64,000 nt of DNA from Eubacteriales bacterium. Its GTDB lineage: Bacteria > Bacillota > Clostridia > Oscillospirales > CAG-272. The translations under genes were made by a program, and so were the position numbers. Location: positions 8,668 to 72,667 of the forward strand of contig JAZNXW010000003.1 in the NCBI GenBank assembly GCA_045594085.1, read 5' to 3'. Positions 3,515 through 55,025 of this stretch are shown here, piece after piece. The stretch's first letter is position 1. Every line of letters starts with the position of its first letter. The notes under the pieces were generated by a model. It saw only the letters and a list, made by a program, of their open reading frames with translations, did no database searches and had not been told where the DNA came from.

Positions 3515-4042
3515 ATGAGCATTATCGGCAAAAAGACGCTAATAATAGGTTGCGGCGGGTCGGGAAAGAGCTATCTTGCCTCGCGGCTCGGTGAGATGAC
3601 GGGCATTCCCGTGATCCATCTTGACCGTCTTTACTGGCTTCCCGGTTGGGTAACACGCGAAAAAGACGATTTCGAGGCTATCCTCGAGGAAGAGTACGCA
3701 CGCGACACGTTTATTATAGACGGCAATTTTATGAGGACGCTTCCCCGTCGTCTGCAGGAGGCAGACTCTGTGATATGGCTCGATTTTTCGACAGCGGCGT
3801 GCATCGCGGGAGTAATCTCGAGGGTAATAAAGAATCGCGGACGTGTCCGTCCCGATATGGGTGACGGCTGTCCCGAACGCTTCAGCACAGATTTTATCAA
3901 ATGGGTATGGAGTTTCAGAAAGCACACACGTCCGAAAATCGTTTCGCAGCTTGAAAAGGCAAAATCGCGCGGCGTGCGCGTGACTGTATTCAAGCGCAGG
4001 CGCGAGGTGAATGAATTTATCAGGTCCATGGAGGCAAAATAA
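3515..4042 (+). CDS. P-loop NTPase, adenylate-kinase-like / topology-modulation (FlaR-like) protein
   Basis: Walker A IIGCGGSGKSYLA near the N-terminus; roughly 175 aa, as in the FlaR/AAA-kinase family. Confidence 0.7.
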   Translation: MSIIGKKTLIIGCGGSGKSYLASRLGEMTGIPVIHLDRLYWLPGWVTREKDDFEAILEEEYARDTFIIDGNFMRTLPRRLQEADSVIWLDFSTAACIAGVISRVIKNRGRVRPDMGDGCPERFSTDFIKWVWSFRKHTRPKIVSQLEKAKSRGVRVTVFKRRREVNEFIRSMEAK

Positions 4043-4069
4043 AAAAGGCAGAAATTCTGCCTTTTTTTA
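4041..4069. terminator. bidirectional terminator between convergent genes
   Basis: aaaaaaggcagaaattctgccttttttt. Confidence 0.75.
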
Positions 4070-5143
4070 TTTCATTCTCACGTTGATCTCATCATATATT
4101 ACTTTTGTTGCATCCGCGGTCCTTCCGTTTATAACGAGTATCTTTTCATCAACGGTAATAACAACGGCAGCCCCACACGCCGTATACGAATAGAGCGTAT
4201 ATTTGCCGAATTCGTCATTTTCGAAGGTTCCGATCGAAAGTCTGGGCGAGCCGAATCCGTAGCATCTGAAGCCTGCATCGAAGGACTCTCTGTACTCTAT
4301 TGAATCGATCTCCGCATACGCAAGAGTCAGATCGTCCGAATACGAGGCCTCGACGGTGAACGATTCTTCGCCGTACTGCATTTTGATATTGCCCGTGAAC
4401 ATTATTGTCAAAACGATCAGAAGTATGATCGGCACTGTCACGAGAGTGATGATCTTTCCCGTTTTGCTTATATTGCTCTCGGGAGCATATTCCACTCCGT
4501 CCGCAAGCTGTTTTTTATAGAACAGATAAGAATACAAAAACGGAACTGCGACAGCCACCACAAACGAGATCAGCATCACCGTCACGGCAATATTGATCGG
4601 CAGAAACGCACAGATCAGCATCACGATACCGCACAAAACCCACGTTACTCCTGTAACACGGTGAGTTTTATTCCAGTTTTCCTCGTTACCGAGCGTCCAT
4701 TTGATCTTAACTCCGATAGTGTGATTCTGTCTGCACTTCGGCATATAGTTTCCCATAATAACGAACAGCACACCTATCAAAAGAAGCGTCCACGTATATA
4801 TATTAACGTCGATCTCAAGCGCATAAGCATACATAATACCGTTAACGAAGAACGACAGCGCAGGCATGATCCAGAGAACCATGGCAAAAACCTTTTTGCT
4901 CTGATTTTTGTTTTTCAAATCCTTCGCAGTTATGAAAATGCACAGCCAATGCAACAGAAGCAGTATGCAAGGCAAGCCGAGCACGGCAAAAACCTTGCCT
5001 GACGCTCCGTCTGCGTTTCCGTCGGCGCCGAAGTGGACCGTCATTGAATCGGGCAGTTCCCCCCAAAATACGATTCCGACGAGCATCGGAAGCAAAATAA
5101 GAACTGATGAAATGACGAATAAGAGCTTATTTGATTTAATCAT
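4067..5143 (-). CDS. SdpI/YhfL-family membrane protein (DUF1648 + SdpI) with C-terminal soluble PH-like domain
   Basis: Multiple TM helices with the W/K-rich SdpI pattern (IKWTLGNEENWNKTHR), followed by a roughly 110-aa beta-rich tail. Overlaps the upstream ArsR-family gene by 8 nt. Confidence 0.7.
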   Translation of the reverse strand: MIKSNKLLFVISSVLILLPMLVGIVFWGELPDSMTVHFGADGNADGASGKVFAVLGLPCILLLLHWLCIFITAKDLKNKNQSKKVFAMVLWIMPALSFFVNGIMYAYALEIDVNIYTWTLLLIGVLFVIMGNYMPKCRQNHTIGVKIKWTLGNEENWNKTHRVTGVTWVLCGIVMLICAFLPINIAVTVMLISFVVAVAVPFLYSYLFYKKQLADGVEYAPESNISKTGKIITLVTVPIILLIVLTIMFTGNIKMQYGEESFTVEASYSDDLTLAYAEIDSIEYRESFDAGFRCYGFGSPRLSIGTFENDEFGKYTLYSYTACGAAVVITVDEKILVINGRTADATKVIYDEINVRMK

Positions 5144-5498: not shown

Positions 5499-6143
5499 TT
5501 ATTCTTCATCCTCGGAAATTTCATCCGCAAGGCGTCGAAGCTCATCGGAAACCTTACGGTCACGGAAATAATATTCCCTGTCGTGCTCTCCGATAGGTCT
5601 GATGACGCGGCAGGGATTGCCGTACGCGACAACGTTTGCGGGAATATCGCGAGTGACGACGCTGCCCGCGCCGATAACGGTATTGTCACCAATGGTAACG
5701 CCCGGCATAATGAGCGCGCCCGCGCCGATCCAGCAATTTTCGCCTATCGTGACGGGCATATTGAACTGATACGCACGGCGGCGAAGCTCAGGCAGTATCG
5801 GATGCGCCGCCGTCGCAATGATTACGTTAGGGGCAAGCATCGTGTACGATCCTATCGTGATATACGTATCGTCAACAAGCGTGAGATTGAAGTTTGCGTA
5901 GACGTAATCTCCGAGTCTGACGTGATGTCCGCCCCAATTTGAATGAAGCGGCGGTTCGATGTAGCATCCCTCTCCGACCTCGGCAAACATTTCCTTGAGA
6001 AGTACGGCGCGCTTTTCTCCCTCACTCGGACGCGTAGCGTTATAATCGTAGAGCTTTTCGAGGCACGAGGTCTGTTCCGTCATTATTTCATCACCCGAGG
6101 GATAATATATATCGCCCGTGTGGAGCTTTTCTTTATCTGTCAC
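5499..6143 (-). CDS. maa: maltose/galactoside O-acetyltransferase (hexapeptide-repeat, Maa-like)
   Basis: Left-handed beta-helix repeats GENCWIGAGALIMPGVTIGDNTVIGAGSVV. The start is placed at GTG 6143, preceded by GGAGGAcaaaaac, rather than the upstream ATG in the track. Confidence 0.8.
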   Translation of the reverse strand: MTDKEKLHTGDIYYPSGDEIMTEQTSCLEKLYDYNATRPSEGEKRAVLLKEMFAEVGEGCYIEPPLHSNWGGHHVRLGDYVYANFNLTLVDDTYITIGSYTMLAPNVIIATAAHPILPELRRRAYQFNMPVTIGENCWIGAGALIMPGVTIGDNTVIGAGSVVTRDIPANVVAYGNPCRVIRPIGEHDREYYFRDRKVSDELRRLADEISEDEE

Positions 6144-6260
6144 GTTTTTGTCCTCCGACACTGTTATTACGGCAATTATATCACAGTAAAAATCGCAAAA
6201 CAAGCGCAGCGGTATTTATTTCCGACTGAATTTGTGGTAAAATGGGGATGAATATAAACG

Positions 6261-6776
6261 ATGCCTTTGGCGAGGTTGAGGAAAACAATGTCAGATATAC
6301 TTTTCAAAACCGACGATTACATCTTTTCGTACCGTGTCGGCGGTGTGCTTATACATAACGGAAAGGTGCTTATGCAAAATGCAGAGGGCGATGATGGCTA
6401 CGCCTTTATCGGCGGTCACGTTGCTTTTGGAGAAACGACCGATGAAACCCTTGTGCGAGAGTTCAGGGAAGAAATCGGCGCAGATATAAAGATCGAAAGA
6501 CTACTTATGGTAAATGAAAATTTCTTTCCGTGGGGGAATAAACCTTGTCAGCAGATCAATTTGTATTATCTGATCTCCTTGAAGGACGAAACGTAAATCC
6601 CCCTTGACAGAAATTTCAAGGCGCTTGATGACTTGAGCAACGAGCGAATTGAGCTTAATATGTGTTGGATACCGCTTGAAGAGATACCCAACAAGAGCAT
6701 ATATCCCCCACAGGCGAAGGAGTACATTATGAATCTGCCCGATGAGATCGTGTACTTTGTTTATAAGGAATCATAA
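6261..6776 (+). pseudogene. NUDIX hydrolase interrupted by an in-frame TAA (6594-6596)
   Basis: Nudix box GGHVAFGETTDETLVREFREEIG lies upstream of the stop. The same frame continues IPLDRNFKALDD...CWIPLEEIPNKSIYPPQAKEYI to TAA 6774-6776. A likelier start is ATG 6288 (RBS GAGGAAA). Confidence 0.7.
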
Positions 6777-6778
6777 CT

Positions 6779-7267
6779 ATGCAAACACAAGACGAGATCA
6801 ACGTACTTCAGATCGAAGAAACTCTACGACTCCGCCGTTTTGATGGCAATTATGATTTTGCGTTTGAGTGGTATCAGGCCCCCGAAACAGTACGTCTTGT
6901 TGACGGTGTGGCTGAACCGTATTCCTATGAAATCTTGACGAATATGTATAACTATCTTAATGGCAAAGGCGAGCTTTATTTCATTGAGATCAACGAAAAC
7001 GGGAAGTGGCTCCCTATCGGCGACGTTACCTTTTGGCAAGAGGATATGCCCATCGTGATTGGCGAGCGTGAATACCGTGGCAAAGGTATCGGAAGAAAGG
7101 TTGTGTCTGTGCTCGTCGAGCGAGGCAGAGCGATGGGATATGATAAGCTGTACGTTGGCGAAATCTACGATTTCAACGTCGGCTCACAAAAGTGCTTTGA
7201 AAGCGTAGGCTTTCGTGCATACGAAAAGACCGAGAAAGGCGCCCGGTACGTTTTGGAACTGAAATAA
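6779..7267 (+). CDS. GNAT family N-acetyltransferase
   Basis: Acetyl-CoA binding motif REYRGKGIGRKVV; roughly 160 aa. Confidence 0.8.
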   Translation: MQTQDEINVLQIEETLRLRRFDGNYDFAFEWYQAPETVRLVDGVAEPYSYEILTNMYNYLNGKGELYFIEINENGKWLPIGDVTFWQEDMPIVIGEREYRGKGIGRKVVSVLVERGRAMGYDKLYVGEIYDFNVGSQKCFESVGFRAYEKTEKGARYVLELK

Positions 7268-7290
7268 CACTAAATATTCGGAGAACAAAA

Positions 7291-8025
7291 ATGAAAAAGA
7301 CAGTAATAATCACAGGCGGAGCGCGTGGGATCGGAGCGTCCGCCGCACGGATATTCGCCGAAAACGGCTACGCCGTCATCATCAATTACCGTAAGTCGGA
7401 GGCTGCCGCCCAGGCGCTTCGCGATGAACTGCGCGCAGAAAATCCCGACATTGAGATCTTCCGTGCAGACGTATCCGTAAGTGAGGAAGCGGACGCGCTC
7501 GTGAGATTTGCCGTCGAGCGTTTCGGATCAGTGGACGTACTCGTGAACAACGCCGGCGTTGCCGATTTCGGTCTTTTCACCGATATGACCGACGCGGACT
7601 ACCGCCGCGTCATGTCCGTCGATCTTGACGGCACGTTTTACTGCAGCCGCGCCGCCGCACGCGAGATGATAAAGGCACACTCGGGCGCGATAATCAATAT
7701 TTCCTCTATGTGGGGGCTCGTCGGCGCGTCCTGTGAGGCGGCATATTCCGCGGCAAAAGCAGGAGTGATCGGACTCACGAAGGCGCTCGCGAAGGAGCTC
7801 GGTCCGTCGGGCATCAGAGTCAACTGCGTTGCGCCTGGCGTGATCGCGACGGAAATGAACTCACGGCTGTCGGAGGCTGATCTTTCCACTCTCGCAGATG
7901 AAACGCCGCTTTCGCGCATCGGTCAGCCGTGCGAGGTTGCCGAGGCAATTCTTTTCCTCGCGGACGAACGCGCCTCGTTCGTCACGGGACAGGTCTTGTC
8001 CGTTGATGGCGGATTCGCGGTGTAA
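7291..8025 (+). CDS. SDR family oxidoreductase, FabG-like 3-oxoacyl reductase
   Basis: TGGARGIGAS cofactor motif, NNAG, and catalytic YSAAK. Confidence 0.85.
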   Translation: MKKTVIITGGARGIGASAARIFAENGYAVIINYRKSEAAAQALRDELRAENPDIEIFRADVSVSEEADALVRFAVERFGSVDVLVNNAGVADFGLFTDMTDADYRRVMSVDLDGTFYCSRAAAREMIKAHSGAIINISSMWGLVGASCEAAYSAAKAGVIGLTKALAKELGPSGIRVNCVAPGVIATEMNSRLSEADLSTLADETPLSRIGQPCEVAEAILFLADERASFVTGQVLSVDGGFAV

Positions 8026-8038
8026 AAACAACAAAAAC

Positions 8039-8063
8039 GCTTGCCGTAAGGCAAGCATTTTTT
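8039..8063 (+). terminator. Rho-independent terminator
   Basis: gcttgcc-gtaa-ggcaagc followed by a T-run. Confidence 0.75.
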
Positions 8064-8069
8064 ATTATG

Positions 8070-8603
8070 TCAATGCGTTTCCGTGACTGCCATAAAGTAC
8101 GCGGCGACTGACTCGGGAGGCGTTTTCATGCCCTCCTTTATCCACCACATCACCGTTTCCGCGAAGCTTCCGACGAGATGATTGAGCAAAAACTCACGAG
8201 GAACGTCCGTTTTGAACACATCGATGAAGCCTTCGAACATAGTATGCAGATGACACTTGAAATACGTCATAAACAGCTCTCCCGAATCGGAGATCAATAT
8301 GCCGGAAAGGTCATTCTTCTCGTCACGTATATGCCAGAGGGTGTGCGAAAGCTTGCTTTCGAGATCGCGGTCCTTCCCCACCCACGGGCACGGATCATGC
8401 TCAAATATATGGAAGAAAAGCTCCTCGCACAGCGCATCGAGCAGAAGATCCTTCGTTTCAAAATGCGAATAAAACGTGCTTCTTCCGACGTCTGCCTCGT
8501 CAATTATCTCCTGCACAGTAATGTGATCGTAGCGTTTCTTCTCAAGAAGCGATCGAAATGCTCTGAATATGGCTTTTCTCGTTTTTTGTTGGCGTCTGTC
8601 CAT
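8070..8603 (-). CDS. TetR/AcrR family transcriptional regulator
   Basis: N-terminal HTH ITVQEIIDEADVGRSTFYSHF. The start is placed at ATG 8603 (RBS GAGAGGAAGG). Confidence 0.85.
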   Translation of the reverse strand: MDRRQQKTRKAIFRAFRSLLEKKRYDHITVQEIIDEADVGRSTFYSHFETKDLLLDALCEELFFHIFEHDPCPWVGKDRDLESKLSHTLWHIRDEKNDLSGILISDSGELFMTYFKCHLHTMFEGFIDVFKTDVPREFLLNHLVGSFAETVMWWIKEGMKTPPESVAAYFMAVTETH

Positions 8604-23793: not shown

Positions 23794-23824
23794 AAGCAAT
23801 CTACAGAAACGGAGGACGTGACAA

Positions 23825-26425
23825 TTGAAAAAGCATTTGACAGTGGGAATCCTCGCGCACGTTGACTCCGGCAAGACCACACTCGCCGAGGCGATACTCC
23901 ATTTGACGGGCAGTATCAGAAATCCGGGCAGAGTTGACCACGGAAACACTCATCTTGACACTCACGAGCTCGAACGCGAACGCGGAATCACGATATTTTC
24001 GTCCGAGGCGTCCGTTTCGACCGATAATTATACACTTACGCTCCTCGATACTCCCGGTCACGTCGATTTTTCGGCGGAGACTGAGCGAACTCTTGCCGTA
24101 CTTGACGCGGCGATCCTTGTCATCAGCGGCAGTGAGGGAGTGCAAAATCACACGGAAACGCTGTGGAGCCTTTTGCGCCGCCACGCAATCCCGACATTCA
24201 TTTTCATAAACAAAACCGACATTCCTACCGTCGAGTGCGGATCGGTTTTCGCAGAGATCCAACGCCGTCTTGACGGAGGATGCACCGATATTGCACTTCC
24301 GTCAGACGAGCTCGTCGAGGCGGTCTCGCTTCTTGACGAGGATCTGCTCGAACGCTATCTGAGCGGCGGCGAGGTGACGGACGAGGATATCCGTAGACTT
24401 ATCGGAGAATGCCGTCTTTTTCCTTGCATTTTCGGCTCAGCGCTTCGTCACGTCGGCGTAAGCGAGCTTCTCAGCGTCATCGACAGTTACGCTCCTTCCA
24501 CTGCGTTCACGGAGGAGTTCGGCGCACGCGTTTACAAGATATCTCACGACGAGCGCGGCGGCAGACTCACTCACATCAAGCTTACCGGAGGCAGGCTCGC
24601 GGTACGCGAGTCGATCACCTACAGCGCTCAGGACGGCGAGCGGACGGAAAAGATCACGTCTATCAAAACTGCCGTCGGAGCGAAGCTTGAGGCAGTAACC
24701 GAAGCGCAAGCGGGAATGCTCTGTGCCGTTTCCGGTCTGTCCGCAACGTATCCCGGTCAGGGGCTCGGCATCGAAAGCGAAGCGTCCTCACCTACGCTTG
24801 AGCCCGTGCTCGAATACCGAATATTGCTTCCGTCGGGCTGTGACGTGCGCGAATATTATCCGAAAATCAAGGTACTTGAGGAGGAGGATCCTCAGCTTCA
24901 CATCACATATAACGAGCGTCTCGGTGAGATCTACGTCCGTCTGATGGGCGAGGTTCAGACAGAGATACTCAAGTGCATCATAAAGTCACGCATAGGCATT
25001 GAGGTATCGATCGATTCGGGACGCATAATGTACCGCGAGACGATTGCGGCGCCCGTCACCGGTGTAGGTCACTTTGAACCGCTCCGCCACTACGCGGAGG
25101 TACACCTATATCTTGAGCCGACAGGTCCCGGAACAGGACTCACATTCCGTTCATCGTGCAGCGTCAACGCGCTCTCAAAGCATTGGCAGAGGCTCATTCT
25201 CTCTCATCTGCGCGAGCGCACGCACAGAGGTGTTCTGACGGGATCTCCCATCACCGATATGCGTATCACTTTGATCGCAGGACGCGCTCACGCTAAGCAC
25301 ACGGAAGGCGGTGACTTCCGTCAGGCAACGTACAGAGCAGTCCGTCAGGCGCTTATGACGGCACGAAGCGTACTTCTCGAGCCGTATTACGCATACAGGA
25401 TCACCGTTCCGACGCATCAGATCGGCAAGGTCATCACTGACGTCCGCGCAATGTCGGGTACGTTCGGCGCGCCCGTCGAGGACGAAAACGGCTTTTCGAC
25501 GCTGACGGGACGTGCGCCCGTTTCCGCTATGCGCAACTACGCTTCCGAGATCATTTCATACACACACGGCGTTGGCAAATTCGCCTTTGAGGTCTGCGGC
25601 TACTATCCCTGCCACGATCCCGAGGCTGTGATAGCGGAGCGTTCGTACGATCCCGAGGCGGATCTTCTCCACACGCCCGATTCCGTCTTCTGCGCACATG
25701 GCGCCGGCTTCAACGTCAAGTGGGACCGCGTGCGCGATTATATGCACATCACGCCCGTTATCACCGAAAAAGCGGAATCCGTGCTTCCGTCGCCGCGATC
25801 TGTGGCGAAAAAGCTCAAGATAGACGAGCGCGAGCTTGAGGCGATCATGGAGCGCGAGTTCGGTCCCATCCGTCGCCGTCAGTACGGCGCTCGAAAGGTC
25901 CGCGACTACAGAGATCGGAGCTACACCGAGGTCAAAAAGAATCCCGACTACTACATCGTAGACGGATACAACGTAATTTTCGCGTGGGATGAGCTTAAAA
26001 ACGCCGCGGAAGCGGAAATCGATCTCGCGCGCTCGCAGCTTATCGCAACGCTTGCGAGCTTCCGTGCGTACAAAAACTGTGATCTTCTGCTCGTTTTCGA
26101 TGCTTACAACGTCAAGGACGGCGTCGAGCGGCGCTACACCCACGAGGGCATTGACGTCGTTTACACAGGCGAGGAGGAGACCGCGGACGCATACATCGAG
26201 CGTCTGATCCACGAGATCGGAAAGAGCTATTTCGTCCGCGTTGTGACATCGGATGCGCTTTTACAGCTTTCCGCATTGTCAGGAGGCGTTATGCGTATGT
26301 CCGCGCGCGAATTCCGCGCAGAGGTCACTGCCGTTTCGGCGGAAATAACGGCATTTATCGAGTCGCTTGATGCGCCCATGCCGCGCGACGAGATCAAGCG
26401 CGACATTTCACTTACGGAAATATAA
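23825..26425 (+). CDS. TetM/EF-G-like translational GTPase fused to a C-terminal YacP/Rae1-type NYN ribonuclease domain
   Basis: TTG start with RBS GGAGGAcgtgacaa. G motifs are AHVDSGKTT, RGITI, DTPGH and NKTD. The C-terminal roughly 158 aa (nt 25949-26425) read YYIVDGYNVIFAW...LLLVFDAY...EETADAYIERL...VRVVTSD, like B. subtilis YacP. Confidence 0.85.
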   Translation: MKKHLTVGILAHVDSGKTTLAEAILHLTGSIRNPGRVDHGNTHLDTHELERERGITIFSSEASVSTDNYTLTLLDTPGHVDFSAETERTLAVLDAAILVISGSEGVQNHTETLWSLLRRHAIPTFIFINKTDIPTVECGSVFAEIQRRLDGGCTDIALPSDELVEAVSLLDEDLLERYLSGGEVTDEDIRRLIGECRLFPCIFGSALRHVGVSELLSVIDSYAPSTAFTEEFGARVYKISHDERGGRLTHIKLTGGRLAVRESITYSAQDGERTEKITSIKTAVGAKLEAVTEAQAGMLCAVSGLSATYPGQGLGIESEASSPTLEPVLEYRILLPSGCDVREYYPKIKVLEEEDPQLHITYNERLGEIYVRLMGEVQTEILKCIIKSRIGIEVSIDSGRIMYRETIAAPVTGVGHFEPLRHYAEVHLYLEPTGPGTGLTFRSSCSVNALSKHWQRLILSHLRERTHRGVLTGSPITDMRITLIAGRAHAKHTEGGDFRQATYRAVRQALMTARSVLLEPYYAYRITVPTHQIGKVITDVRAMSGTFGAPVEDENGFSTLTGRAPVSAMRNYASEIISYTHGVGKFAFEVCGYYPCHDPEAVIAERSYDPEADLLHTPDSVFCAHGAGFNVKWDRVRDYMHITPVITEKAESVLPSPRSVAKKLKIDERELEAIMEREFGPIRRRQYGARKVRDYRDRSYTEVKKNPDYYIVDGYNVIFAWDELKNAAEAEIDLARSQLIATLASFRAYKNCDLLLVFDAYNVKDGVERRYTHEGIDVVYTGEEETADAYIERLIHEIGKSYFVRVVTSDALLQLSALSGGVMRMSAREFRAEVTAVSAEITAFIESLDAPMPRDEIKRDISLTEI

Positions 26426-26444: not shown

Positions 26445-28649
26445 ATGGCAACACTTATAATCGCCGAAAAGCCCTCGCTCGGCAGAAACATCGCCGCGGG
26501 CATCGGAAAGATGCAAAAGCACGACGGTTACCTCGAGGGCGGCGGCTATATCATAACGTGGGCGTTCGGTCATCTTTTTTCGCTTTGCGACATTGAGACC
26601 TACACCGGCAGTCCGAGCAAGCGTTGGCGGCTTGAGGGACTTCCCTGCATCCCGCGTCAATTTAAATTTGAATTGAAGCACGACGGCGACGGCAAGATTG
26701 ATCCCGGCGTCAAAAAGCAGTTTGCGATCATCAAAAGTCTTTGCAGACGCCCCGACGTTGACACGGTCGTAAACGCCGGTGACGCGGACCGCGAGGGCGA
26801 GATCATTGTGCGTCTGTGCGTCGGCAACGCGCTCGGCGCGAAGGGACTCGCGGAAAAGCAATTTATGCGTCTGTGGCTGCCCGATCAGACGCCGCAGACG
26901 GTACGTGCCGCGCTTGCGGAGATGAAGCCAGAGACAGAATATGACCGTCTTGCAAACGAAGGCTACGCCCGCACCTACATCGACTGGCTGTACGGTGTCA
27001 ATCTGACGCGATACGCGACGATACGTGCAGGCTCGCTACTGCGAGTCGGGCGCGTCATCGTGCCGATTGTGCGCGCCATTTACGAGCGTGATATGGAGAT
27101 CCGCAATTTCGTTCCGGAAAAGTATTATTCCGTCACGTCAAAGACCGAGCACGACGGCGTACCGATCGAGCTGACCAGCAAAAAGAAATTTCATCCGAAC
27201 GAATACGAAAAAGCGCTCGCCTATGCCGAAAGTCTGAATGCGGTTCCCGCGAGAGTCAAATCCGTCTCCGAAAAGCGCGAAACTCTTAATCCGGGCAAGC
27301 TCTATTCTCTGTCGAAGCTACAGAACGTGCTCGGCAAAAAGTACAAGATGTCAATGAAGGAATCGCTTGACATCGTGCAGAGCCTTTACGAAAAGGGGTA
27401 CCTTTCATATCCGCGTACAAACTCGGAATATCTCGCAACGGCTGAGCAATCCAAGGTCAAGGACATCATCGCAATTTGTAAAAATCTCGGCTACAACGTC
27501 GAGTTCAAATTCAAAAAATCCATCTTCGACGATGCAAAGATCGAATCCCACTCGGCGCTGACGCCGACGTACAAGATCCCCGACAAAACAAAGCTGACCG
27601 AGCGCGAGATGCAGGTCTATTCGACCGTTTTCAGGCGCTTTGTCGCCGTATTTTGCGCGGAGGAATGTGTCGTAATGAAAACGACTGTCAAGCTCGACTG
27701 CGGAGACGGCACGGAGTCATTCACGCTCAAGGGCACCGTTATGCTTGAAAAGGGATGGACGCGTTACGACGACTACACGACCAAGGACAAGCTTTTGCCG
27801 AAGCTATCCGAGGGTGACGAGATCGCAGTCGCGTTTGCTCCGACGGAAAAGGAGACGCAGCCGCCGAAGCATTACACGATCGAAACGCTCAACGCGTATT
27901 TGAAAAATCCGTTTCGCGATGATAAAAAGTCGAAATCGTCCAAAAAGCACGACGAAGAAGAGGAAGAAGCTGACACTCCCGAAAACGATGACGCTGAGTA
28001 CAAGGCGATGCTTTCCGGACTTGAGCTCGGCACGGAAGCAACGCGCACGGGCATCATCGACAACGCGCGCAAATCCGGATATATCGCGCTGACAAAGGAC
28101 GTATACACCATTCTTCCGATGGGAGAATATATGATCGAATCGCTCTCCCGCATGGGCATAGGTATGGACAAGTACAAGACCGCAGAGGTCGGTATGTCGC
28201 TGAAAAAGGTCTACCGCGGCGAATGCGAGATCGCAGACAGCGTTGCCGTAGCGGAGCGCGAGATCAGGAGCATATTCGAGTCAAACACCGAATTTACGCC
28301 GTCTCCGCCGCCCGGTGCAGTGAAGGACAATCCCGAGGAGGGCTCGGGTGTTGAGGTCGGCAAATGTCCGCTTTGCGGATGTCCGGTAACACACCGCAAA
28401 TTCCGTTTCGCCTGCGAAAAACACGGTGACGGATGCGATTTTTCCATCGGAGGCAAGATCTGCGGTGTGACGGTGACAGACGAGATGATGTCTCGGATGC
28501 TCACGACGGGCACGTCGGGGCTAATCAAGGGATTCACGTCTAAAAACGGCAAGCTCTTCGATGCAGAGCTGCAGCTTGAATCGGGAAAGCTCAAATTTGA
28601 GTTTCCTAAGACCTCTCCTGCCGCAAAAACAAGCGTCAAACAGGAGTGA
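26445..28649 (+). CDS. topB: DNA topoisomerase III (type IA)
   Basis: Toprim start ATLIIAEKPS, active-site region LSYPRTNSEYL, and a C-terminal CxxC...C zinc-ribbon/topo-C repeat. Confidence 0.9.
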   Translation: MATLIIAEKPSLGRNIAAGIGKMQKHDGYLEGGGYIITWAFGHLFSLCDIETYTGSPSKRWRLEGLPCIPRQFKFELKHDGDGKIDPGVKKQFAIIKSLCRRPDVDTVVNAGDADREGEIIVRLCVGNALGAKGLAEKQFMRLWLPDQTPQTVRAALAEMKPETEYDRLANEGYARTYIDWLYGVNLTRYATIRAGSLLRVGRVIVPIVRAIYERDMEIRNFVPEKYYSVTSKTEHDGVPIELTSKKKFHPNEYEKALAYAESLNAVPARVKSVSEKRETLNPGKLYSLSKLQNVLGKKYKMSMKESLDIVQSLYEKGYLSYPRTNSEYLATAEQSKVKDIIAICKNLGYNVEFKFKKSIFDDAKIESHSALTPTYKIPDKTKLTEREMQVYSTVFRRFVAVFCAEECVVMKTTVKLDCGDGTESFTLKGTVMLEKGWTRYDDYTTKDKLLPKLSEGDEIAVAFAPTEKETQPPKHYTIETLNAYLKNPFRDDKKSKSSKKHDEEEEEADTPENDDAEYKAMLSGLELGTEATRTGIIDNARKSGYIALTKDVYTILPMGEYMIESLSRMGIGMDKYKTAEVGMSLKKVYRGECEIADSVAVAEREIRSIFESNTEFTPSPPPGAVKDNPEEGSGVEVGKCPLCGCPVTHRKFRFACEKHGDGCDFSIGGKICGVTVTDEMMSRMLTTGTSGLIKGFTSKNGKLFDAELQLESGKLKFEFPKTSPAAKTSVKQE

Positions 28650-28665
28650 CGGAATATACGCACAA

Positions 28666-28696
28666 GAAAAAGCCTTGCTTTCGCAAGGCTTTTTTG
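28666..28696. terminator. bidirectional terminator
   Basis: aaaaagccttgctttcgcaaggctttttt. Confidence 0.8.
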
Positions 28697-46670: not shown

Positions 46671-49337
46671 TTAAATTATCATCTTGGACACGATGAACAT
46701 GGGAACGATCCAAACGAGCGCGTACAAGGATATGAATATGGGTGTGAGCGTGAGTGCGCCGAAGAGAAGCGCGAGCGCTGCGATCACAAGGCTGACGAAG
46801 AGCGAAATGATAACGAGCATCGTATTCACGCTACGTGCGTGGAGCACTTTTTCACAAAGCGCCACCGTCTGAATGACGGACTTGGGCGAATCCTTGGAAA
46901 CGAGGCCGCTTCCGGTCGTTTCTCCGACCTTGGTTTTGTCGTCGAGGCTCTTGCATCTGATGATGCGGATGGGATAATCCGCGAGCTTGATCTGCGCGCC
47001 GAGGAACTGCTCGGTGATGTTGGGATCAAACGTCTTCAGACCGATGAACATACCGCCGCGGTCAAGCTGCTTGAGAATGAACTCGAAATCAGCATCGACA
47101 ACGTAGGATATGAGCATACGGGAGATGAATTTGCCGTCCTTGACCATATACATAACGCTTACGACGGGCTCGAACACGTCATTTCTGTGAGGCTCAAGCG
47201 GTGCGGGGATCCTTACGCCTGCGGCTTCGAGCGCATCGATGGTACCGAAGGAGATCACGGATCCGTCAACCTCTGCTTCAAGCAGACCGGGAAGCGTACG
47301 GAGGAGCTTGACGTTTGAAGAATATCCGATATCGCGGGTAGCGATATCAAACACGTCTGAGAGCGGGCCGCCGACTGTGCAGAACACACTTGCCGCATAG
47401 TAAAGCACGTCATCGATACGGTTATTGCCGAACACGTTGATCGCACGAACGTTGACTCCCGTAGACGGGAACACGTTGTTGTCATCAAAAGAGATAATTG
47501 CCGCATCCGCATACTCTTCCGCGGAGCTTTCACCGATGATGGTGCTTTCATCCTCGTACGCTTTCTGGTTAGCCATATAGAAGGGGTGCGAAAACATATA
47601 GAACACGGACAGCGGCATGCATACAAGTGCCGTTGAGATTGCCGCCTTCATTCCTCCATAGAGAGTTCCTGCATCGTTATAGCTGAACGCAAAGAACGCG
47701 GCGGCGATAACGATAGCGGCGGGCACGATGAATCCGATGAACTTTCTGCCGTTCGGATAGCGGTTCGTGCGGAGGAAATAGTCGTTTACAAAGTCTGCAC
47801 ATTCGACTCTGAGAACGCCGATATCGTCGGCGTCATCGTCCTCGTCCATCATATCGGAGAATGCCTCGTGCTCGAGATGAGACTCGGACATTGTGAGATT
47901 TTCAAGCGCAAACTTCGACTTTTTCGACGAAATAATGCTGAAGCTGAGTATCTCGCGGCGAACATTGATATAATCGCTGACATACAGCACGATAAACATC
48001 ACAGCAACGGGAAGGTTGAATGTAACGGGACCGCCTTCCTCATACACGTGCACGAAGGAGATCACAACGCTGTAAAGCGCGTTGAGAATAAGCGCGAATG
48101 CGGCGATGGACTCGGGCGCGGGCTTCGCGCCGAAGAAATCGCGCAGTCCGGACCAAACGGACTTATACGCGGGAGCCGCGACAAGAAGCAGGAGCTGAAG
48201 TCCCACCATAATGAACACGACAGGATAGAGCGTAGGCGAGAAGGCTCCGCCGAGTGTTATACCGAATGCGGAGTGGCATTCGAAGATTGCAAGGATCAGC
48301 GTGAGGACGGTCGCATACAGAATCTTGACACCGGAGAGCTTTCTTGCGGCGGCATATGAGTCGCGGACCTCTCGGGTCTGAGTCTTGCTTGTGTATTCAT
48401 ATTCGAGACGGGATCTTTCGCGGTTGAGATTTTCAACGCGTTCGATATCGCCCTGCTGTTTTTCAACGTATGCGGTGACGTTTTTCTCACCGATGGATTC
48501 GTGGAGCTCATCCTCCATGCCGAGCGCAAGCATAATGTTCACGTCAAAGTCATCGACGTCGCTTTGCGGCTTATCTGTGGGGGAACCGAGCGCGGAGAAA
48601 TCCTCTTCATCGTCTCCTGAGACCGCGTCAAAGACGATTGTACCGTCTTCTTCAGCGGATTCGGACTCTTCTTCCGACTCCACGGGAGCCTCGACAGCTT
48701 CTTCTGTCGGTTCTGCCGTTTCTTCATCATCGGAGCCGTAAAGCTCGTCCTCGGGCTCCTCAAATTCAGCGAAGATGTCAATGTCATGATCGAAGCTCTT
48801 TGCGCCGGGCTCGACAAAATCGAACACGTTCGTTGCTTCATCCGGTGTCTCATTCTTCGCGCCGTCTTCGGATTCGTACTCTTCAACGCTGTCAAAGATA
48901 CTGAGATCTTCGTCCTCTTCTTCACTTTCCGCATCAAAGGACACGGCGTCAAACACAGCGGTACCCGCCTCAAGCTCGTCTATCACGGACGCACGTGCTG
49001 TATTTTCCGCAATTGCTTCTTCAATTGTGTCAGGCTCAGATTCAGCTTCGCTGACTCCGTGCATTCTGGCAGCCGTCATACGTCTTCTGCGTAACGGCTT
49101 GACCTCCGCTTCCGCAGAAACGGACGTGCCGTATTCCTTTACGTCATCGTCGTTTTCGGCGACAGCGGGATCGGTTGCGTCATCCGCGATCTGCGCAGAC
49201 GCTTCGTCCGCGAAATCCTCGTCCATATACTTGCGCAAAAGCTCAGTTATGTCGAGTTCGCTTTCCTTAGTCGGCTTATTGCCGTTGTTTTCGATCATAG
49301 CTTTCTCCAAAATTGATTTATCGTAATTTGGTGTCAT
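46671..49337 (-). CDS. membrane protein resembling a catalytically degenerate P1B-type ATPase, with a long acidic N-terminal region
   Basis: The TM and cytoplasmic-loop order parallels heavy-metal ATPases, but CPC becomes MPL, FDKTGT becomes FDDNNV, and TGDN becomes TFDPN. The first roughly 300 aa are D/E-rich. The ATG overlaps the rlmB stop (ATGA). Confidence 0.6.
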   Translation of the reverse strand: MTPNYDKSILEKAMIENNGNKPTKESELDITELLRKYMDEDFADEASAQIADDATDPAVAENDDDVKEYGTSVSAEAEVKPLRRRRMTAARMHGVSEAESEPDTIEEAIAENTARASVIDELEAGTAVFDAVSFDAESEEEDEDLSIFDSVEEYESEDGAKNETPDEATNVFDFVEPGAKSFDHDIDIFAEFEEPEDELYGSDDEETAEPTEEAVEAPVESEEESESAEEDGTIVFDAVSGDDEEDFSALGSPTDKPQSDVDDFDVNIMLALGMEDELHESIGEKNVTAYVEKQQGDIERVENLNRERSRLEYEYTSKTQTREVRDSYAAARKLSGVKILYATVLTLILAIFECHSAFGITLGGAFSPTLYPVVFIMVGLQLLLLVAAPAYKSVWSGLRDFFGAKPAPESIAAFALILNALYSVVISFVHVYEEGGPVTFNLPVAVMFIVLYVSDYINVRREILSFSIISSKKSKFALENLTMSESHLEHEAFSDMMDEDDDADDIGVLRVECADFVNDYFLRTNRYPNGRKFIGFIVPAAIVIAAAFFAFSYNDAGTLYGGMKAAISTALVCMPLSVFYMFSHPFYMANQKAYEDESTIIGESSAEEYADAAIISFDDNNVFPSTGVNVRAINVFGNNRIDDVLYYAASVFCTVGGPLSDVFDIATRDIGYSSNVKLLRTLPGLLEAEVDGSVISFGTIDALEAAGVRIPAPLEPHRNDVFEPVVSVMYMVKDGKFISRMLISYVVDADFEFILKQLDRGGMFIGLKTFDPNITEQFLGAQIKLADYPIRIIRCKSLDDKTKVGETTGSGLVSKDSPKSVIQTVALCEKVLHARSVNTMLVIISLFVSLVIAALALLFGALTLTPIFISLYALVWIVPMFIVSKMII

Positions 49338-50137
49338 TCGTGCAGTTGTCTTGCCGCTTCAAAAAGAAGCACTGCGCCTGCGCACGAAACATTAAGTGAA
49401 TTAACGTGGCCGTACATCGGTATCGAAACGACGAAATCGCTCGCTTCACGGAGCACGCGGCTTACGCCCTCGCCCTCGCTTCCGAGGATTATCGCTGTCG
49501 CCGAATCGAATTTGGTTTTGTAATAGGGCTCGCCGTCCGCCTCGGCTGTATAGACCCAGACTCCTCTTTCCTGAAGCTCCTTGACAGCGGCGGCAAGATT
49601 CGGGACCTTGACTATCGTCAAGTGCTCGATCGCTCCCGCAGATGATTTTGAGACAGCCGGTGTAAGACCTGCGCTATGGCGCTTGGGAATAATGAGTCCG
49701 TGCACTCCCGCACACTCCGCCGATCTGATGATCGCGCCGAGATTGCCGGGATCCGTTACGTCATCCGCAATGACGATGAAGGGCTTTTCGCCGCGCTCGC
49801 GGGCGACGTCAAAAATGTCATCGATGGTACCGTAATCCTTTTCGGCAGCCATTGCAATGATGCCCTGATGGTTCATTCCGCCGGCCATAAAGTCGAGCTT
49901 TCCGGGATCAACCTCGACGGTGGGAATCTTCATACGTCCCGCTTCCGCGATGAGAGCTGTTATACTTCCCTCTTTATCGCCTCTGCGGACGAAAATCTTA
50001 TCTATACTGCGTCCGCTTTTGAGAAGCTCGCGGACTGCGTTGCGTCCTATAACGGCGCCCTCAACAGGCTCCTTGGGAATCTGTCTTTTCTCGCCCGCGG
50101 ACGACTGTTTTGTGTATCTTTTTTTATCGTTTGCCAT
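49334..50137 (-). CDS. rlmB: 23S rRNA (guanosine-2'-O)-methyltransferase RlmB (SpoU/TrmH family, YacO-like)
   Basis: N-terminal substrate-binding domain (VIGRNAVRELLKSG) and SpoU motifs NLGAIIRSAE and IILGSEGEGVS. Confidence 0.85.
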   Translation of the reverse strand: MANDKKRYTKQSSAGEKRQIPKEPVEGAVIGRNAVRELLKSGRSIDKIFVRRGDKEGSITALIAEAGRMKIPTVEVDPGKLDFMAGGMNHQGIIAMAAEKDYGTIDDIFDVARERGEKPFIVIADDVTDPGNLGAIIRSAECAGVHGLIIPKRHSAGLTPAVSKSSAGAIEHLTIVKVPNLAAAVKELQERGVWVYTAEADGEPYYKTKFDSATAIILGSEGEGVSRVLREASDFVVSIPMYGHVNSLNVSCAGAVLLFEAARQLHE

Positions 50138-50691: not shown

Positions 50692-51273
50692 TTACTGCGT
50701 GATGAGCTTTTGAAGCTTACCGCGCATTCTGTAAAGTGCGTTTTCGACCGTTTTGACGTTCACACCGAGTGTGTCCGCGATGGTGGACGGCTTGGCACCG
50801 TCAACGTAAAGGTCGTACACCTCATACTCAAGCGGAGACAAGACGGCTTTGATCTTATAATCGAGCTCCTGCTCGCTTTCCATATTGAGCAACATCTCCG
50901 ACGGATCGGGATCGAGAGATACGCCGTCTTCAAGATCAAACGCGTCCTCATCGACGGCGGTAAACACACCACTGTGACGTCTGATAAGGGAGATCATACG
51001 ATTTTTAATGCAGATCTTTGCATAAAGACCGAAGCTGACGTCCTCTTTGGCAGGATCGTATCGGAGTGCGGACTGATAAAGCTTAATGACCGCCTCCTGG
51101 CGGAATTCTTCCTCATCGGTGCGTGTCACATCAGACATAAGCGACGCTGCGCCGATAACTGAGGAGTCGATAAGCGGGGCGTATCTGCGGAGAAGCTCCG
51201 CGCACGCGTCATCATCGCCGGACTTGACTGCCGATATCAATTCATCAACTGAAAATTTGTCGTAATTTATCAT
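50692..51273 (-). CDS. sigma-70 family RNA polymerase sigma factor (SigH-like size and architecture)
   Basis: Region 2 (EEFRQEAVIKLYQSALRYD) and region 4 HTH (LSPLEYEVYDLYVDGAKPSTIADTLGVNVKTVENALYRMRGKL). Confidence 0.75.
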   Translation of the reverse strand: MINYDKFSVDELISAVKSGDDDACAELLRRYAPLIDSSVIGAASLMSDVTRTDEEEFRQEAVIKLYQSALRYDPAKEDVSFGLYAKICIKNRMISLIRRHSGVFTAVDEDAFDLEDGVSLDPDPSEMLLNMESEQELDYKIKAVLSPLEYEVYDLYVDGAKPSTIADTLGVNVKTVENALYRMRGKLQKLITQ

Positions 51274-51362: not shown

Positions 51363-51920
51363 TCAAAATATTAAATTCACATCTCCGGAAAGAAGTGCGA
51401 GCGAGCCGCGATATATAACCTCGGGATGCTCACGGAAATTTTTCCTGATCATTTCGGCACGTGCGGGCGAATCAACCTTAACGGTAACGGAACACACGGG
51501 ACGCTTTTTTTCGCGGATCGTACAGGTGACGAGCAATCCGCCGCCTTCCTCCTCGGGGATCTCTTCCTTTTTGAAATCAAGATCCGCCTCGCGTTCCTTA
51601 AAGGAAACAAGCCGCAACGCAGTCTTGAGGCTTCGCGATCTTATCTCGGCAAAGATATCCTCGGACAGTCCGTCCGCAACATTGACGCCGCGAGGCGTGA
51701 TGCAATACGTATCAAGCTCGCCCTCTCCGCCCTTGATCTCCGCGAGCAATCCGTCGTCAAGGAGCTCGGAAAAACACGTGGCAAAATCGATATATTCAAC
51801 GTATCCGTCGTAAAGCGCAACGTCATTTATTATGTTGTAATCGAGCGGTCTGTCGAGGTTTTTCATCAAAAAAAGAATGAAGACCTTGACGTAATTTTTG
51901 TCGCTGACGGGAGATCTCAT
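51363..51920 (-). CDS. DUF4364 family (PadR-like) protein
   Basis: KVFILFLMKNLDRPLDYNIINDVALYDGYVEYIDFATCFSELLDDGLL matches the family pattern. Confidence 0.55.
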   Translation of the reverse strand: MRSPVSDKNYVKVFILFLMKNLDRPLDYNIINDVALYDGYVEYIDFATCFSELLDDGLLAEIKGGEGELDTYCITPRGVNVADGLSEDIFAEIRSRSLKTALRLVSFKEREADLDFKKEEIPEEEGGGLLVTCTIREKKRPVCSVTVKVDSPARAEMIRKNFREHPEVIYRGSLALLSGDVNLIF

Positions 51921-54122: not shown

Positions 54123-55025
54123 ATGTTTTCCAATGAAAAAAGATATTCCCGCACAGACCTTGCGTGCGAAATCATCACCTCCGACGCCGCCGAGGCTGAC
54201 GCAGAGCTCACCGAATACGAGCGCGACGGATTCCGTGTATCAATCACGCAGATCAAAAGCGAAGCCGCCTCCCGTCGGCTCGGCAAGCCGTGCGGCATCT
54301 ATCACACGCTTTTCACAGGAAAAACACGAACACTCCCGGACGAAAAGCGAAAGGCACTCATCGCGCTCATTGCGGAAATCTTGAAGGATTGTGTGTGCTC
54401 CGCAACGAACAAACATGACATACCGTCTGCGACAATCCTCGTCGCGGGCATAGGAAACAGGAATCTGACCGCAGATGCGGTCGGTCCGCTCGTAGTTGAG
54501 AAGCTGACAGTGACTCGCGAACTGAAATTCTCAAATCGCGATCTTTTCACGCGTCTTGAATGTGCCGACGTATCAGCAATTGCGCCCGGAGTTGCCGCAG
54601 AAACGGGAATCGAAGCCGCCGACATTATCAGAGCCGCCGCCGAAGCTGTCGACGCGGACGCAATAATTCTGGTAGACGCGCTTGCGGCACGCTCTTGCCA
54701 CCGTCTTGCCGCTACCGTGCAGATCACGGACACGGGCGTAAGCCCCGGATCCGGCATCGGCAATACGCGCACTCCCATTGACAGCGAGACGATGCACGTC
54801 CCTGTTGTAACCGTCGGCATCCCCACCGTCGTTGACTCATCGACACTCGTTTACGAGGCACTCACAGAAGGCGACGTCGATCCCGATTCCCTCGGCGGTA
54901 AACTCGATGAGATACTGTCAAGCGGTCGTTCGTTTTTCGTTTCGCCGCAGGATACCGACGTGATAGTCGAGGATATGTCCGCGATTGTCGCGGAAGCTAT
55001 CGACACCTTTTGCGGCACACGTTGA
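54123..55025 (+). CDS. gpr: GPR endopeptidase (spore germination protease)
   Basis: RTDLACE near the N-terminus, VAGIGNRNLTADAVGP, TDTGVSPGSGIGN. Followed by spoIIP, as in Bacillus. Confidence 0.85.
   Translation: MFSNEKRYSRTDLACEIITSDAAEADAELTEYERDGFRVSITQIKSEAASRRLGKPCGIYHTLFTGKTRTLPDEKRKALIALIAEILKDCVCSATNKHDIPSATILVAGIGNRNLTADAVGPLVVEKLTVTRELKFSNRDLFTRLECADVSAIAPGVAAETGIEAADIIRAAAEAVDADAIILVDALAARSCHRLAATVQITDTGVSPGSGIGNTRTPIDSETMHVPVVTVGIPTVVDSSTLVYEALTEGDVDPDSLGGKLDEILSSGRSFFVSPQDTDVIVEDMSAIVAEAIDTFCGTR

Follow-up and report, generated by a model that had tools for sequence, protein, structure and literature searches.

A TetM-like translational GTPase fused to a Rae1-type nuclease is widespread in two orders of Clostridia

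Results

One gene for a GTPase and a nuclease

The window investigated in this study is a contiguous stretch of 64,000 nucleotides from the genome of a clostridial bacterium. Positions 23825..26425 of its plus strand hold an open reading frame of 866 codons followed by a stop, which starts with a TTG codon located 9 nt downstream of a Shine-Dalgarno sequence (GGAGG, 23811..23815, plus strand) and which contains no internal stop according to the ORF list and the translation. The encoded protein carries the motifs AHVDSGKTT, RGITI, DTPGH, NKTD, YYIVDGYNVIFAW, LLLVFDAY, ETADAYIERL and VRVVTSD, and its N-terminus (LKKHLTVGILAHVD) pairs with the equivalent region of TetM (MKIINIGVLAHVD) starting at residue 3. 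An initial annotation, made from the sequence, had described this region as a single unbroken frame that joins a translational GTPase to a Rae1/YacP-type NYN endoribonuclease. Both the frame, with all motifs quoted for it, and the assignment of its two halves stand up to closer analysis, and each of the profile families named in that context (GTP_EFTU, EFG_III, EFG_IV, EFG_C and NYN_YacP) finds its match in the protein.

The architecture is reproduced wherever its relatives were inspected. Both halves are present in all of the 120 best database relatives, whose lengths range from 844 to 891 residues, and the 80 retrieved GTDB loci, which were drawn from at least 591 matching stretches, all match the protein through to at least residue 834. 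A contig from ENA with the same gene order, which was obtained independently, encodes an 868-residue frame of 86% identity, and RefSeq records of isolates (Monoglobus, Agathobacter) show the same unbroken arrangement. Since the architecture recurs in all of these relatives and loci and in the independent syntenic contig, it is not an artefact of assembly, and the proposal that adjacent genes were joined by an error in sequencing or assembly is refuted, with a negligible residual probability. As a possible start of a separately translated nuclease, we considered Met675, which is preceded by only a weak GAGG and is replaced by Phe in 51 of 98 family members, and we thus rejected this candidate. 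The fusion is therefore confirmed as one real gene encoding a GTPase and a Rae1-type nuclease.

Architecture of the GTPase half

The G domain (residues 2-225, 23828..24499, plus strand, as are all segments of the protein described below) is detected by the Pfam family GTP_EFTU with E=9e-53 and contains the G1 motif AHVDSGKTT, the switch I sequence RGITI, the G3 motif DTPGH with the catalytic His79 and the G4 motif NKTD. It is followed by domains II and III (residues 232-396, 24518..25012), which are covered by the families EF-G_D2 (232-307) and EFG_III (327-396) and predicted by AF2 with pLDDT values mostly above 85, by domain IV (residues 399-513, 25019..25363; EFG_IV, E=2e-20) and by domain V (residues 516-598, 25370..25618; EFG_C, E=6e-16). 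Hence, the G1-G4 motifs, the histidine of the DxxGH sequence and domain II, which define the superfamily of translational GTPases, are all found in the protein, and the intact motifs and TetM/TetO/EF-G-like character that had been ascribed to its first approximately 640 residues are reflected in matches to five Pfam domains. The fold of this half is EF-G-like (Foldseek, E=5e-53), and its score of 285.6 bits against the EF-G equivalog model TIGR00484 stays below the cut-off of 659.4.

Among 98 diverse full-length members of the family, the cores of G1, RGIT and DTPGH are invariant or nearly so. His79 is found in 97 of the 98 proteins, K130 and D132 of G4 are retained and N129 of the same motif is found in 80. 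Domain IV, which we have aligned with TetM, TetO, TetQ, TetB(P), an OtrA-like protein and one EF-G-like protein, is distinguished by two family-specific signatures, GVGH[FY]EPLRHYAEV (413-426) and GRAHxKHTEGGDFR (486-499). As judged from these sequence features, residues 2-598 constitute a complete, five-domain translational GTPase of the EF-G/TetM type that is predicted to be catalytically competent.

Domain V is succeeded by a C-terminal extension module (residues 599-641, 25619..25747), which was delineated by alignment, conservation and AF2 prediction. In alignments, its YDPxxD sequence pairs over a short stretch with the extension found after domain V in tetracycline ribosomal protection proteins, and it precedes the family-specific motif SVFCxHGAGxxVxW..MH. 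In the 98 members, Y608, S620, F622 and G626 of this module are invariant and D613 and W633 nearly so. The model shows a helix, a beta-hairpin and a second helix with block-mean pLDDT values of 78-89. The family also includes unfused relatives, which terminate just past this module and which appear to be the result of secondary losses of the nuclease.

Tether and nuclease

The two halves are connected by a tether of 67 residues (642-708, 25748..25948), which was defined by predicted disorder, its length across the family and its charge. AF2 assigns pLDDT values below 50 to residues 647-666 and 679-704, which leaves a short helix at 668-679 in the region of the conserved motif ELExIxxRxFG (670-680). 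Across the family, the tether varies in length between 60 and 192 residues, with a median of 74, and its segment adjacent to the nuclease carries a median net charge of +5. No Pfam family matches this region, and no match to a PDB sequence is better than E=0.3. The linker, described earlier as basic and about 60 residues long, is basic in the stretch just before the nuclease and mostly disordered. The model of the full protein (pTM 0.62), with its disordered linker, carries no information on the mutual placement of the two halves.

The nuclease comprises residues 709-850 (25949..26374), of which residues 711-848 match the Pfam family NYN_YacP (PF05991) with E=2.8e-40 and 138.4 bits compared to a cut-off of 24.6. 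This half aligns with the crystal-structure sequence of B. subtilis YacP/Rae1 (5MQ8/5MQ9) over residues 2-151 of the latter (E=6e-22), and a tblastn comparison, in which all residues of the active site are aligned, gives 37% identity to Rae1 over 121 residues. Proteins of the NYN_YacP group are characterised by a GYN motif following the first aspartate and by an active site with at least four aspartates (Matelska 2017, PMC5499597), and both features are present in the sequence D713-G-Y-N716 together with D759, D788 and D810. The four aspartates and N716 are invariant in 98 of 98 members, confirming the acidic active-site residues that had been claimed for the domain. Its block-mean pLDDT is mostly 84-94 and decreases to 55 in a single loop block near residue 815. 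The pattern of conservation in the catalytic centres of both the GTPase and the nuclease argues for strong purifying selection.

Genomic context and distribution

A topoisomerase III-like gene (topB, 26445..28649, plus strand; Pfam Topoisom_bac, Toprim and Toprim_Crpt) starts 19 nt downstream of the fusion gene, and the sole terminator-like site on this strand is located at 28666-28695, past the end of topB. Both genes are probably co-transcribed in this organism. As a conserved partner, topB was rejected, since the same order is found in the relative of 86% identity, yet none of the 80 GTDB loci has the two genes side by side. A homologue of ylmH (YlmH_RBD and S4 domains) follows the fusion gene directly on the same strand in 17 of the 80 loci; its B. 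subtilis counterpart is a factor of ribosome-associated quality control (RQC, PMC11317155). Besides ylmH, no neighbour recurs in more than about ten of these loci, and the neighbourhood is otherwise unconserved. Matelska 2017 mentions HTH neighbours; in the window, an AraC gene and a DUF4004 gene are found upstream of the fusion, but genes for GH43 and EIIC proteins lie in between. The window also contains a gene for a germination protease, and the host is a spore former.

In the typical arrangement of Firmicutes, a single-domain YacP is encoded in the cluster cysS-mrnC-rlmB-yacP-sigH, and C. difficile keeps its canonical form (cysS-mrnC-thyX-rlmB-NYN-sigH). The fusion departs from this arrangement. 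The rlmB gene of the window (49334..50137, minus strand), located 23 kb away, is flanked by a sigma-factor gene and by an 888-residue frame without family match, in line with the earlier remark that it lacks its yacP neighbour, and no YacP-like sequence other than that of the fusion was found in the window. A second rlmB, in the retrieved locus L023, is likewise devoid of an adjoining NYN gene.

The initial annotation had left the spread of the fusion to a survey, and its answer is reflected in the same 120 relatives and 80 loci that establish the architecture. The latter represent 80 species genomes from Oscillospiraceae, Ruminococcaceae, Acutalibacteraceae, Lachnospiraceae and related groups, and the fusion is also contained in one Monoglobus record. 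A query with the tether and the NYN domain retrieved 289 clusters at 50% identity (E<=1e-30). The gene is chromosomal and widespread over two orders of Clostridia. We have also considered free-standing proteins consisting of linker and NYN domain, for which a representative search yielded 72 short matches. These mostly start inside the fusion at scattered offsets and are therefore most likely gene fragments, leading us to dismiss this candidate.

Discussion

The domain composition described here is not new in itself. It was listed for ten species by Atkinson 2015 (BMC Genomics, PMC4342817) and reported as a TetM-NYN_YacP fusion in some Clostridia by Matelska 2017 (NAR, PMC5499597), with the function left open in both studies, and the protein of the window is a member of this family, with identical architecture and taxonomic group and without structural difference. 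In the literature covered by our search, we found no functional study of the family. The earlier remark that no characterised example was known thus holds for function within this literature, but not for the fusion itself, which had already been published as a domain architecture.

With respect to its function, we lean towards the view that the gene product is a ribosome-targeted mRNA endonuclease contained in one polypeptide. We count in favour of this assignment its architecture, the conserved active sites, the broad and fixed occurrence of the fusion, the disordered tether that is basic near the nuclease, the presence of ylmH downstream in part of the loci and the empty yacP slot after rlmB. 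The best hypothesis that we infer for its mechanism is a GTP-gated delivery of the nuclease to stalled ribosomes. In such a process, the GTP-bound form would dock at the factor-binding site of a ribosome with a free A site, which would either be stalled or part of a collision queue, and, in the manner of TetM, the decoding centre would be probed by domain IV and the C-terminal extension. Docking would keep the tethered nuclease in reach of the mRNA, either at the docked ribosome itself or where this ribosome meets its neighbour. The nuclease would then cut the message, and the factor would be released by GTP hydrolysis on the sarcin-ricin loop. The truncated message would then route the ribosome to rescue by tmRNA or RQC, as shown for the free-standing Rae1 of B. 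subtilis.

[quoted passage not shown] The initial rationale for the fusion, according to which Rae1 cleaves in the ribosomal A site where EF-G and TetM dock, is outdated, as the model was withdrawn by its own authors. The current view positions Rae1 12 nt upstream of ribosomes that have stalled or collided, with its cleavage site on the mRNA-exit, or tail, side of the stalled ribosome instead of the A site. Since Rae1 cuts at the tail side, an anchor at the factor-binding site does not obviously coincide with its place of cutting, unless the fusion acts from the trailing ribosome or by means of its long tether.

An alternative role was suggested by Atkinson 2015, who proposed a ribosomal protection protein against tetracycline, or another A-site antibiotic, that has gained an RNase domain. 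It draws on the fact that tet_protect is the best NCBIfam model and that TetM and TetO are the best sequence matches in the PDB, on the position of the family as sister clade of the protection proteins, with which it may have the C-terminal extension in common, and on automatic annotations, several of which imply protection, with PGAP and JGI giving part of the family names such as TetM/W/O/S-family protein or ribosomal protection protein. The scores themselves argue otherwise, as the fusion reaches 430.9 bits with tet_protect (NF012153) compared to a curated cut-off of 775, 266.5 bits with the TetM/W/O/S model (NF033148) compared to a cut-off of 1100, and an identity of only 28-35% to TetM, TetO, TetQ, TetB(P) and OtrA-like proteins (about 29% to TetM and TetO). 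A further difference concerns loop III of domain IV, which is responsible for the displacement of tetracycline (Tet(M) L505-Y-Y-S508-P-V510...ADFR). In protection proteins, this loop reads YYSPVSTPADFR, with the pattern [YF][YFA][SG]P.S..[AG]DFR found in all five aligned proteins, whereas the fusion contains RAHAKHTEGGDFR, retained in 98 members, and its family consensus RAHxKHTEGGDFR is equally conserved but different. At the C-terminal extension, a short similarity is seen, with YDPEADLLHT of the fusion, where AF2 places short helical turns, aligning with YDPLNKKEYLLHK of TetB(P), PYDRDRYMLHT of the OtrA-like protein and RIDKVRYMFNK of TetM. Moreover, the gene is chromosomal in hundreds of species and shows no conserved context of mobile elements or resistance genes and no tet(M)-type leader. 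A role in antibiotic protection thus appears very unlikely, and the sequence relationships place the GTPase in a lineage of its own, as a sister of the tetracycline ribosomal protection proteins and not one of them.

The question of the substrate raises another alternative, in which 16S rRNA, or else tRNA, would be cut instead of mRNA by an NYN domain that the GTPase brings close to the decoding centre. Such cleavage would serve to inactivate or turn over ribosomes in starving or sporulating cells, or it would act in rRNA maturation or in the quality control of newly made subunits. With its anchor near the decoding centre, the tether would have helices of 16S rRNA in reach, YacP genes are classically found beside the rRNA and tRNA processing genes mrnC and rlmB, which led to rRNA/tRNA maturation as their first predicted role, and a sporulating host would be compatible with this purpose. 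In light of the described 37% identity to Rae1, with its aligned active-site residues, and of the lack of evidence of any kind for rRNA cleavage, we consider this alternative unlikely. An anti-phage or toxin-like abortive device that shuts off translation once triggered, one form of the stress or defence device contemplated in the initial annotation, would find a parallel in the speculation of a Rae1 preprint that stall-triggered cleavage might hit phage transcripts, and a BrnT/CopG toxin-antitoxin pair adjoins the gene in Agathobacter rectalis. However, no PADLOC family was matched at E<=0.001, recurrent defence neighbours were not found over the 80 loci, and 2.9 million viral contigs contained five matches, four of which were located at or running off a contig end and four of which were unfused forms. 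The gene instead spans whole bacterial families, as is the case for housekeeping genes, which leaves the defence proposal without support and extremely improbable.

The proposed mRNA endonuclease can be placed next to several known systems. With B. subtilis Rae1 it shares the NYN_YacP fold, the D-GYN motif, the four aspartates and the presumed substrate, mRNA on stalled ribosomes. Rae1 is a free-standing protein of approximately 170-180 residues (181 in the chains of the crystal structures), its gene follows rlmB, and its contact with the ribosome is transient. In contrast, the nuclease of the fusion forms the C-terminus of an 866-residue GTPase whose gene is distant from rlmB, and its recruitment would proceed via the factor-binding site. 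Among characterised proteins, the N-terminal 640 residues are most closely related to Tet(M), Tet(O), Tet(Q), TetB(P) and Otr(A), which also consist of a five-domain EF-G-like GTPase with a possibly equivalent extension after domain V. Unlike these mobile resistance genes, the fusion is a chromosomal core gene, and its product contains the additional SVFCxHGAG..W module, the tether and the nuclease. The proposed logic is analogous to that of SmrB in E. coli and Cue2 in yeast, where a nuclease at stalled or collided ribosomes generates truncated mRNA for rescue, although their SMR fold is unrelated to NYN and their recruitment proceeds via contacts at the collision interface instead of a GTPase module.

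The putative nuclease is probably the resident equivalent of Rae1 in Oscillospirales and Lachnospirales and not an accessory protein. A more far-reaching proposal, which we regard as possible but doubtful, describes the fusion as a native, GTP-lockable version of the Rae1 stall/collision nuclease that has replaced the free-standing protein in both orders and that would act in a rescue operon with ylmH in part of the clade. Rae1-type nucleases would then work from the side of the factor-binding site and the decoding centre, perhaps on the trailing ribosome of a collision, where the entrance for the mRNA adjoins the tail of the stalled ribosome. If this were true, a GTPase that can be frozen with non-hydrolysable GTP would offer the first means to trap a Rae1 domain in its ribosome-bound state, for which a 2026 preprint states that no structure exists because the contact is transient.

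Compared with the reports from 2015 and 2017, our study enlarges the family to at least 80 species genomes in which the fusion was verified, with a probable extent of more than 590 matching stretches, and describes a separate sister lineage of GTPases with its own signatures in domain IV and at the C-terminus and with unfused members. Few uncharacterised translation factors of the dominant Clostridia in gut and rumen are as widespread as this family. The evidence argues that its occasional automatic annotation as TetM/W/O/S is wrong, which could inflate resistome counts in gut metagenomes. With respect to the recognition of stalled and collided ribosomes by Rae1, the covalent link of its domain with a GTPase of the factor site hints at the place of action of such nucleases and offers, in combination with GDPCP and a nuclease-dead mutant, a complex that may be trapped experimentally.

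A single polypeptide with two catalytic centres

The translational GTPase and the Rae1/YacP-type NYN nuclease that the initial annotation had placed in one gene are indeed joined in a single ORF of 866 aa (23825–26425, + strand), whose translation is free of internal stops and contains all motifs quoted there. Its TTG start, taken from the ORF listing, is preceded by a GGAGG at a distance of 9 nt and is likelier than the GTG six codons downstream chosen by the gene caller in an 860-aa database entry, because the N-terminus of the protein aligns with TetM from residue 3. A Pfam profile search confirmed the assignment of both halves, with GTP_EFTU (residues 2–225), EF-G_D2 (232–307), EFG_III (327–396), EFG_IV (399–513) and EFG_C (516–598) followed by NYN_YacP (711–848, E = 2.8e-40), and the sequence of the B. 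subtilis YacP/Rae1 crystal structures (5MQ8/5MQ9) can be aligned over its residues 2–151 to the C-terminal part of the protein at E = 6e-22. In an alignment of 98 diverse, full-length family proteins, of which 78 are representatives at 50% identity and 20 are closer, D14, G16 and K17 of the G1 motif A-H-V-D-x-G-K-T are invariant and its remaining positions are found in 91–97 of the 98 proteins, with similar conservation in switch I (R-G-I-T, 96–98/98), G3 (D-T-P-G-H, 97–98/98, His79 in 97/98) and G4 (N-K-x-D, K130 and D132 in 98/98, N129 in 80/98). The claimed acidic residues of the nuclease are equally present: D713, N716, D759, D788 and D810, each found in 98/98 members, make up the D-GYN motif and the aspartate quartet by which the predicted active site of NYN_YacP is defined (PMC5499597). 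The aligned sequences show one polypeptide with two conserved, predicted catalytic centres.

An assembly join or two separate genes are refuted by the integrity of the fusion in all 120 best relatives from a collection of 5.8 billion proteins (844–891 aa, both halves present), in all 80 loci retrieved from a GTDB scan, where the match extends to residue 834 or beyond, and in an independent ENA contig, which encodes an 868-aa ORF of 86% identity and shares with the window the gene order AraC, DUF4004, GH43, EIIC, fusion, topB. The survey of its spread proposed in the initial annotation revealed that the fusion is not rare: the GTDB scan, using one genome per species, found at least 600 matching stretches, of which at least 591 were confirmed as relatives. 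The 80 loci span Oscillospiraceae, Ruminococcaceae, Acutalibacteraceae, Faecousia, Flavonifractor, Intestinimonas and Ruminococcus flavefaciens, with about 17 from Lachnospiraceae (Blautia, Dorea, Roseburia, Coprococcus, Herbinix and others), and the fusion is likewise present in RefSeq entries from isolates of Monoglobus pectinilyticus and Agathobacter rectalis. The gene is distributed like a core gene. A query of linker and nuclease (residues 599–866) against 1.84 billion cluster representatives matched 289 clusters at E ≤ 1e-30; 78 of the best 150 reach full length, with 800 aa or more, and the shorter matches mostly have scattered internal starts and resemble fragments.

A sister lineage of tetracycline ribosomal protection proteins

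The best NCBIfam model for the fusion is tet_protect, at 431 bits far under the curated cut-off of 775, and its scores for EF-G models are likewise below their cut-offs. We compared the GTPase half with Tet(M), Tet(O), TetB(P), Tet(Q), one Otr(A)-like and one EF-G-like protein from annotated plasmid records. Identity to the five protection proteins is 28–35% over 591 columns, and in neighbour-joining trees 192 of 200 bootstraps recover the fusion family as a monophyletic group outside the clade of protection proteins, itself monophyletic in 199/200. The two groups differ in loop III of domain IV, the element credited with tetracycline displacement (PMC4750697), which reads YYSPVSTPADFR in protection proteins and SYHDVDSSEMAFK in EF-G, whereas the fusion family carries RAHxKHTEGGDFR at this site. 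This motif and a second family signature, GVGH[FY]EPLRHYAEV, are each almost invariant. In the domain IV tip (residues 412–427 and 486–499; 25058–25105 and 25280–25321), His and Glu residues that are invariant or almost so (H416, E418, H422, E425, H427, H489, H492) form a cluster; EF-G and protection proteins lack this cluster, which might contact RNA or bind a metal. A C-terminal extension may be common to both groups, as a short stretch of similarity aligns YDPEADLLHT of the fusion with YDPLNKKEYLLHK of TetB(P) and RIDKVRYMFNK of TetM; it is followed by a module particular to the fusion family (SVFCxHGAGxxVxW..MH), whose region is predicted by AlphaFold as helix, beta-hairpin and helix (block-mean pLDDT 78–89). 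As judged from these comparisons, the GTPase half represents a sister lineage to the protection proteins and does not belong among them, and the score, divergence, separate clade and distinct loop III weaken the view of a tetracycline protection protein to which an RNase was added. Public annotation pipelines label some members as 'TetM/TetW/TetO/TetS family tetracycline resistance ribosomal protection protein', including Agathobacter rectalis WP_306784676.1 (L091 2643–5444), the database relatives P0042, P0077 and P0096, and the L. salivarius megaplasmid locus L082, an annotation likely to lead to false resistance-gene calls in gut metagenomes.

The tether and its loss in unfused relatives

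Past residue 641 the chain is predicted to be disordered (pLDDT <50 at 647–666 and 679–704), with the exception of one conserved short helix (ELExIxxRxFG). Across the family this region comprises 60–192 residues (median 74), and its segment adjoining the nuclease is basic, with a median net charge of +5; searches with it gave no Pfam family, and no PDB sequence at an E-value under 0.3. These features describe a flexible tether, anchored behind a putative TetM-like C-terminal extension. Five unfused relatives, a 639-aa protein adjoining an ISL3 transposase on a Ligilactobacillus salivarius megaplasmid (L082 3998–5917) and four of 719–753 aa on IMG/VR contigs (L093, L095 and L096 from position 4, L094 from 4689), all stop just past the ..MH motif of the SVFCxHGAG module, and no NYN gene is found in the vicinity of any. 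Since in the neighbour-joining trees they are nested within the fused clade and basal to all fusions in 0/200 bootstraps, although their own monophyly is weak (97/200), they appear to have lost the nuclease secondarily.

Genomic context

Upstream of the fusion are a PTS EIIC gene and a GC-rich hairpin; downstream, a topoisomerase III-like gene (topB, 26445–28649, + strand) starts 19 nt past the stop, followed by the sole terminator-like site on this strand. Since topB adjoins the fusion in none of the 80 GTDB loci, this arrangement is not conserved. The first 415 residues of the topB product match the PADLOC DpdF model (188 bits), which probably reflects generic topoisomerase-domain homology and not a Dpd system. 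The only recurring neighbour among the 80 loci is a ylmH homologue (YlmH_RBD and S4) immediately 3' on the same strand, found in 17, all Oscillospirales-type (L001, L003, L005, L006, L008, L010, L013, L015, L023, L026, L031, L036, L042, L053, L062, L071, L075; for example L013 8567–9313), a position occupied in the window by topB, with no ylmH. B. subtilis YlmH is a ribosome-associated RQC factor (PMC11317155).

The noted absence of a yacP neighbour next to rlmB (49334–50137, − strand) held: the gene lies between a sigma-factor gene (50692–51273, −) and an 888-aa ORF (46671–49337, −), and the window contains no second YacP. In contrast, C. difficile has the order cysS-mrnC-thyX-rlmB-NYN-sigH. 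The 888-aa ORF, which overlaps by 4 nt with the stop of rlmB, fills the slot held by yacP in C. difficile and B. subtilis; it has neither a Pfam nor a PADLOC match, and its product begins with an extended acidic stretch, behind which lie several hydrophobic segments. In L023, a rumen Oscillospiraceae MAG locus, rlmB (3536–4249, −) is located 1.7 kb upstream of the fusion (6001–8511, +) on the opposite strand, with ylmH downstream and no free-standing NYN gene in the locus of 14.5 kb. Close to rlmB in the window are also a DUF4364 gene (51363–51920, −) and a germination protease gene (Peptidase_A25, 54123–55025, +), the latter of which suggests a spore-forming Clostridium-type host. A SAM riboswitch (RF00162, 43139–43227, −; 52 bits, above the gathering score) is the only Rfam match, and no tRNA genes were found in the window.

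Mechanistic implications

The GTPase–NYN_YacP architecture itself is not new, having been published twice (Atkinson, 2015; Matelska et al., 2017), and full-text searches of the accessible literature found no functional study. Within a large family that was described yet never characterised, the window gene is unexceptional. GTP-gated delivery of a nuclease to ribosomes, as proposed initially, is reasonable: docking of the protein at the factor site would depend on GTP and take place on ribosomes whose A site is free, the tethered NYN domain would cleave mRNA, GTP hydrolysis would release the factor and tmRNA/RQC would then rescue the ribosome. The underlying rationale of A-site cleavage by Rae1 is, however, outdated by later work on the free-standing enzyme, now placed 12 nt upstream of ribosomes that have stalled or collided. 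Rae1 is needed for tmRNA tagging following collisions in a pathway named CART, and, owing to transient binding, there is no ribosome-bound structure for it (PMC13622287). A factor-site anchor could be reconciled with the current Rae1 model in two ways: the protein might operate on the trailing ribosome, where the mRNA entrance adjoins the tail of the stalled ribosome, or the tether of 60–190 residues might reach round the 30S subunit. As a rival to mRNA cleavage, the NYN domain may target rRNA or tRNA. The suggested defence device, or a role as toxin, is weakened by the lack of any PADLOC match of the fusion and by the scarcity of relatives in 2.9 million viral contigs, where only five were found, four of them unfused forms and four at or running off a contig end.

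The family is useful for learning how Rae1-type nucleases engage ribosomes, and a second value of the finding lies in correcting its annotation as tetracycline resistance genes.
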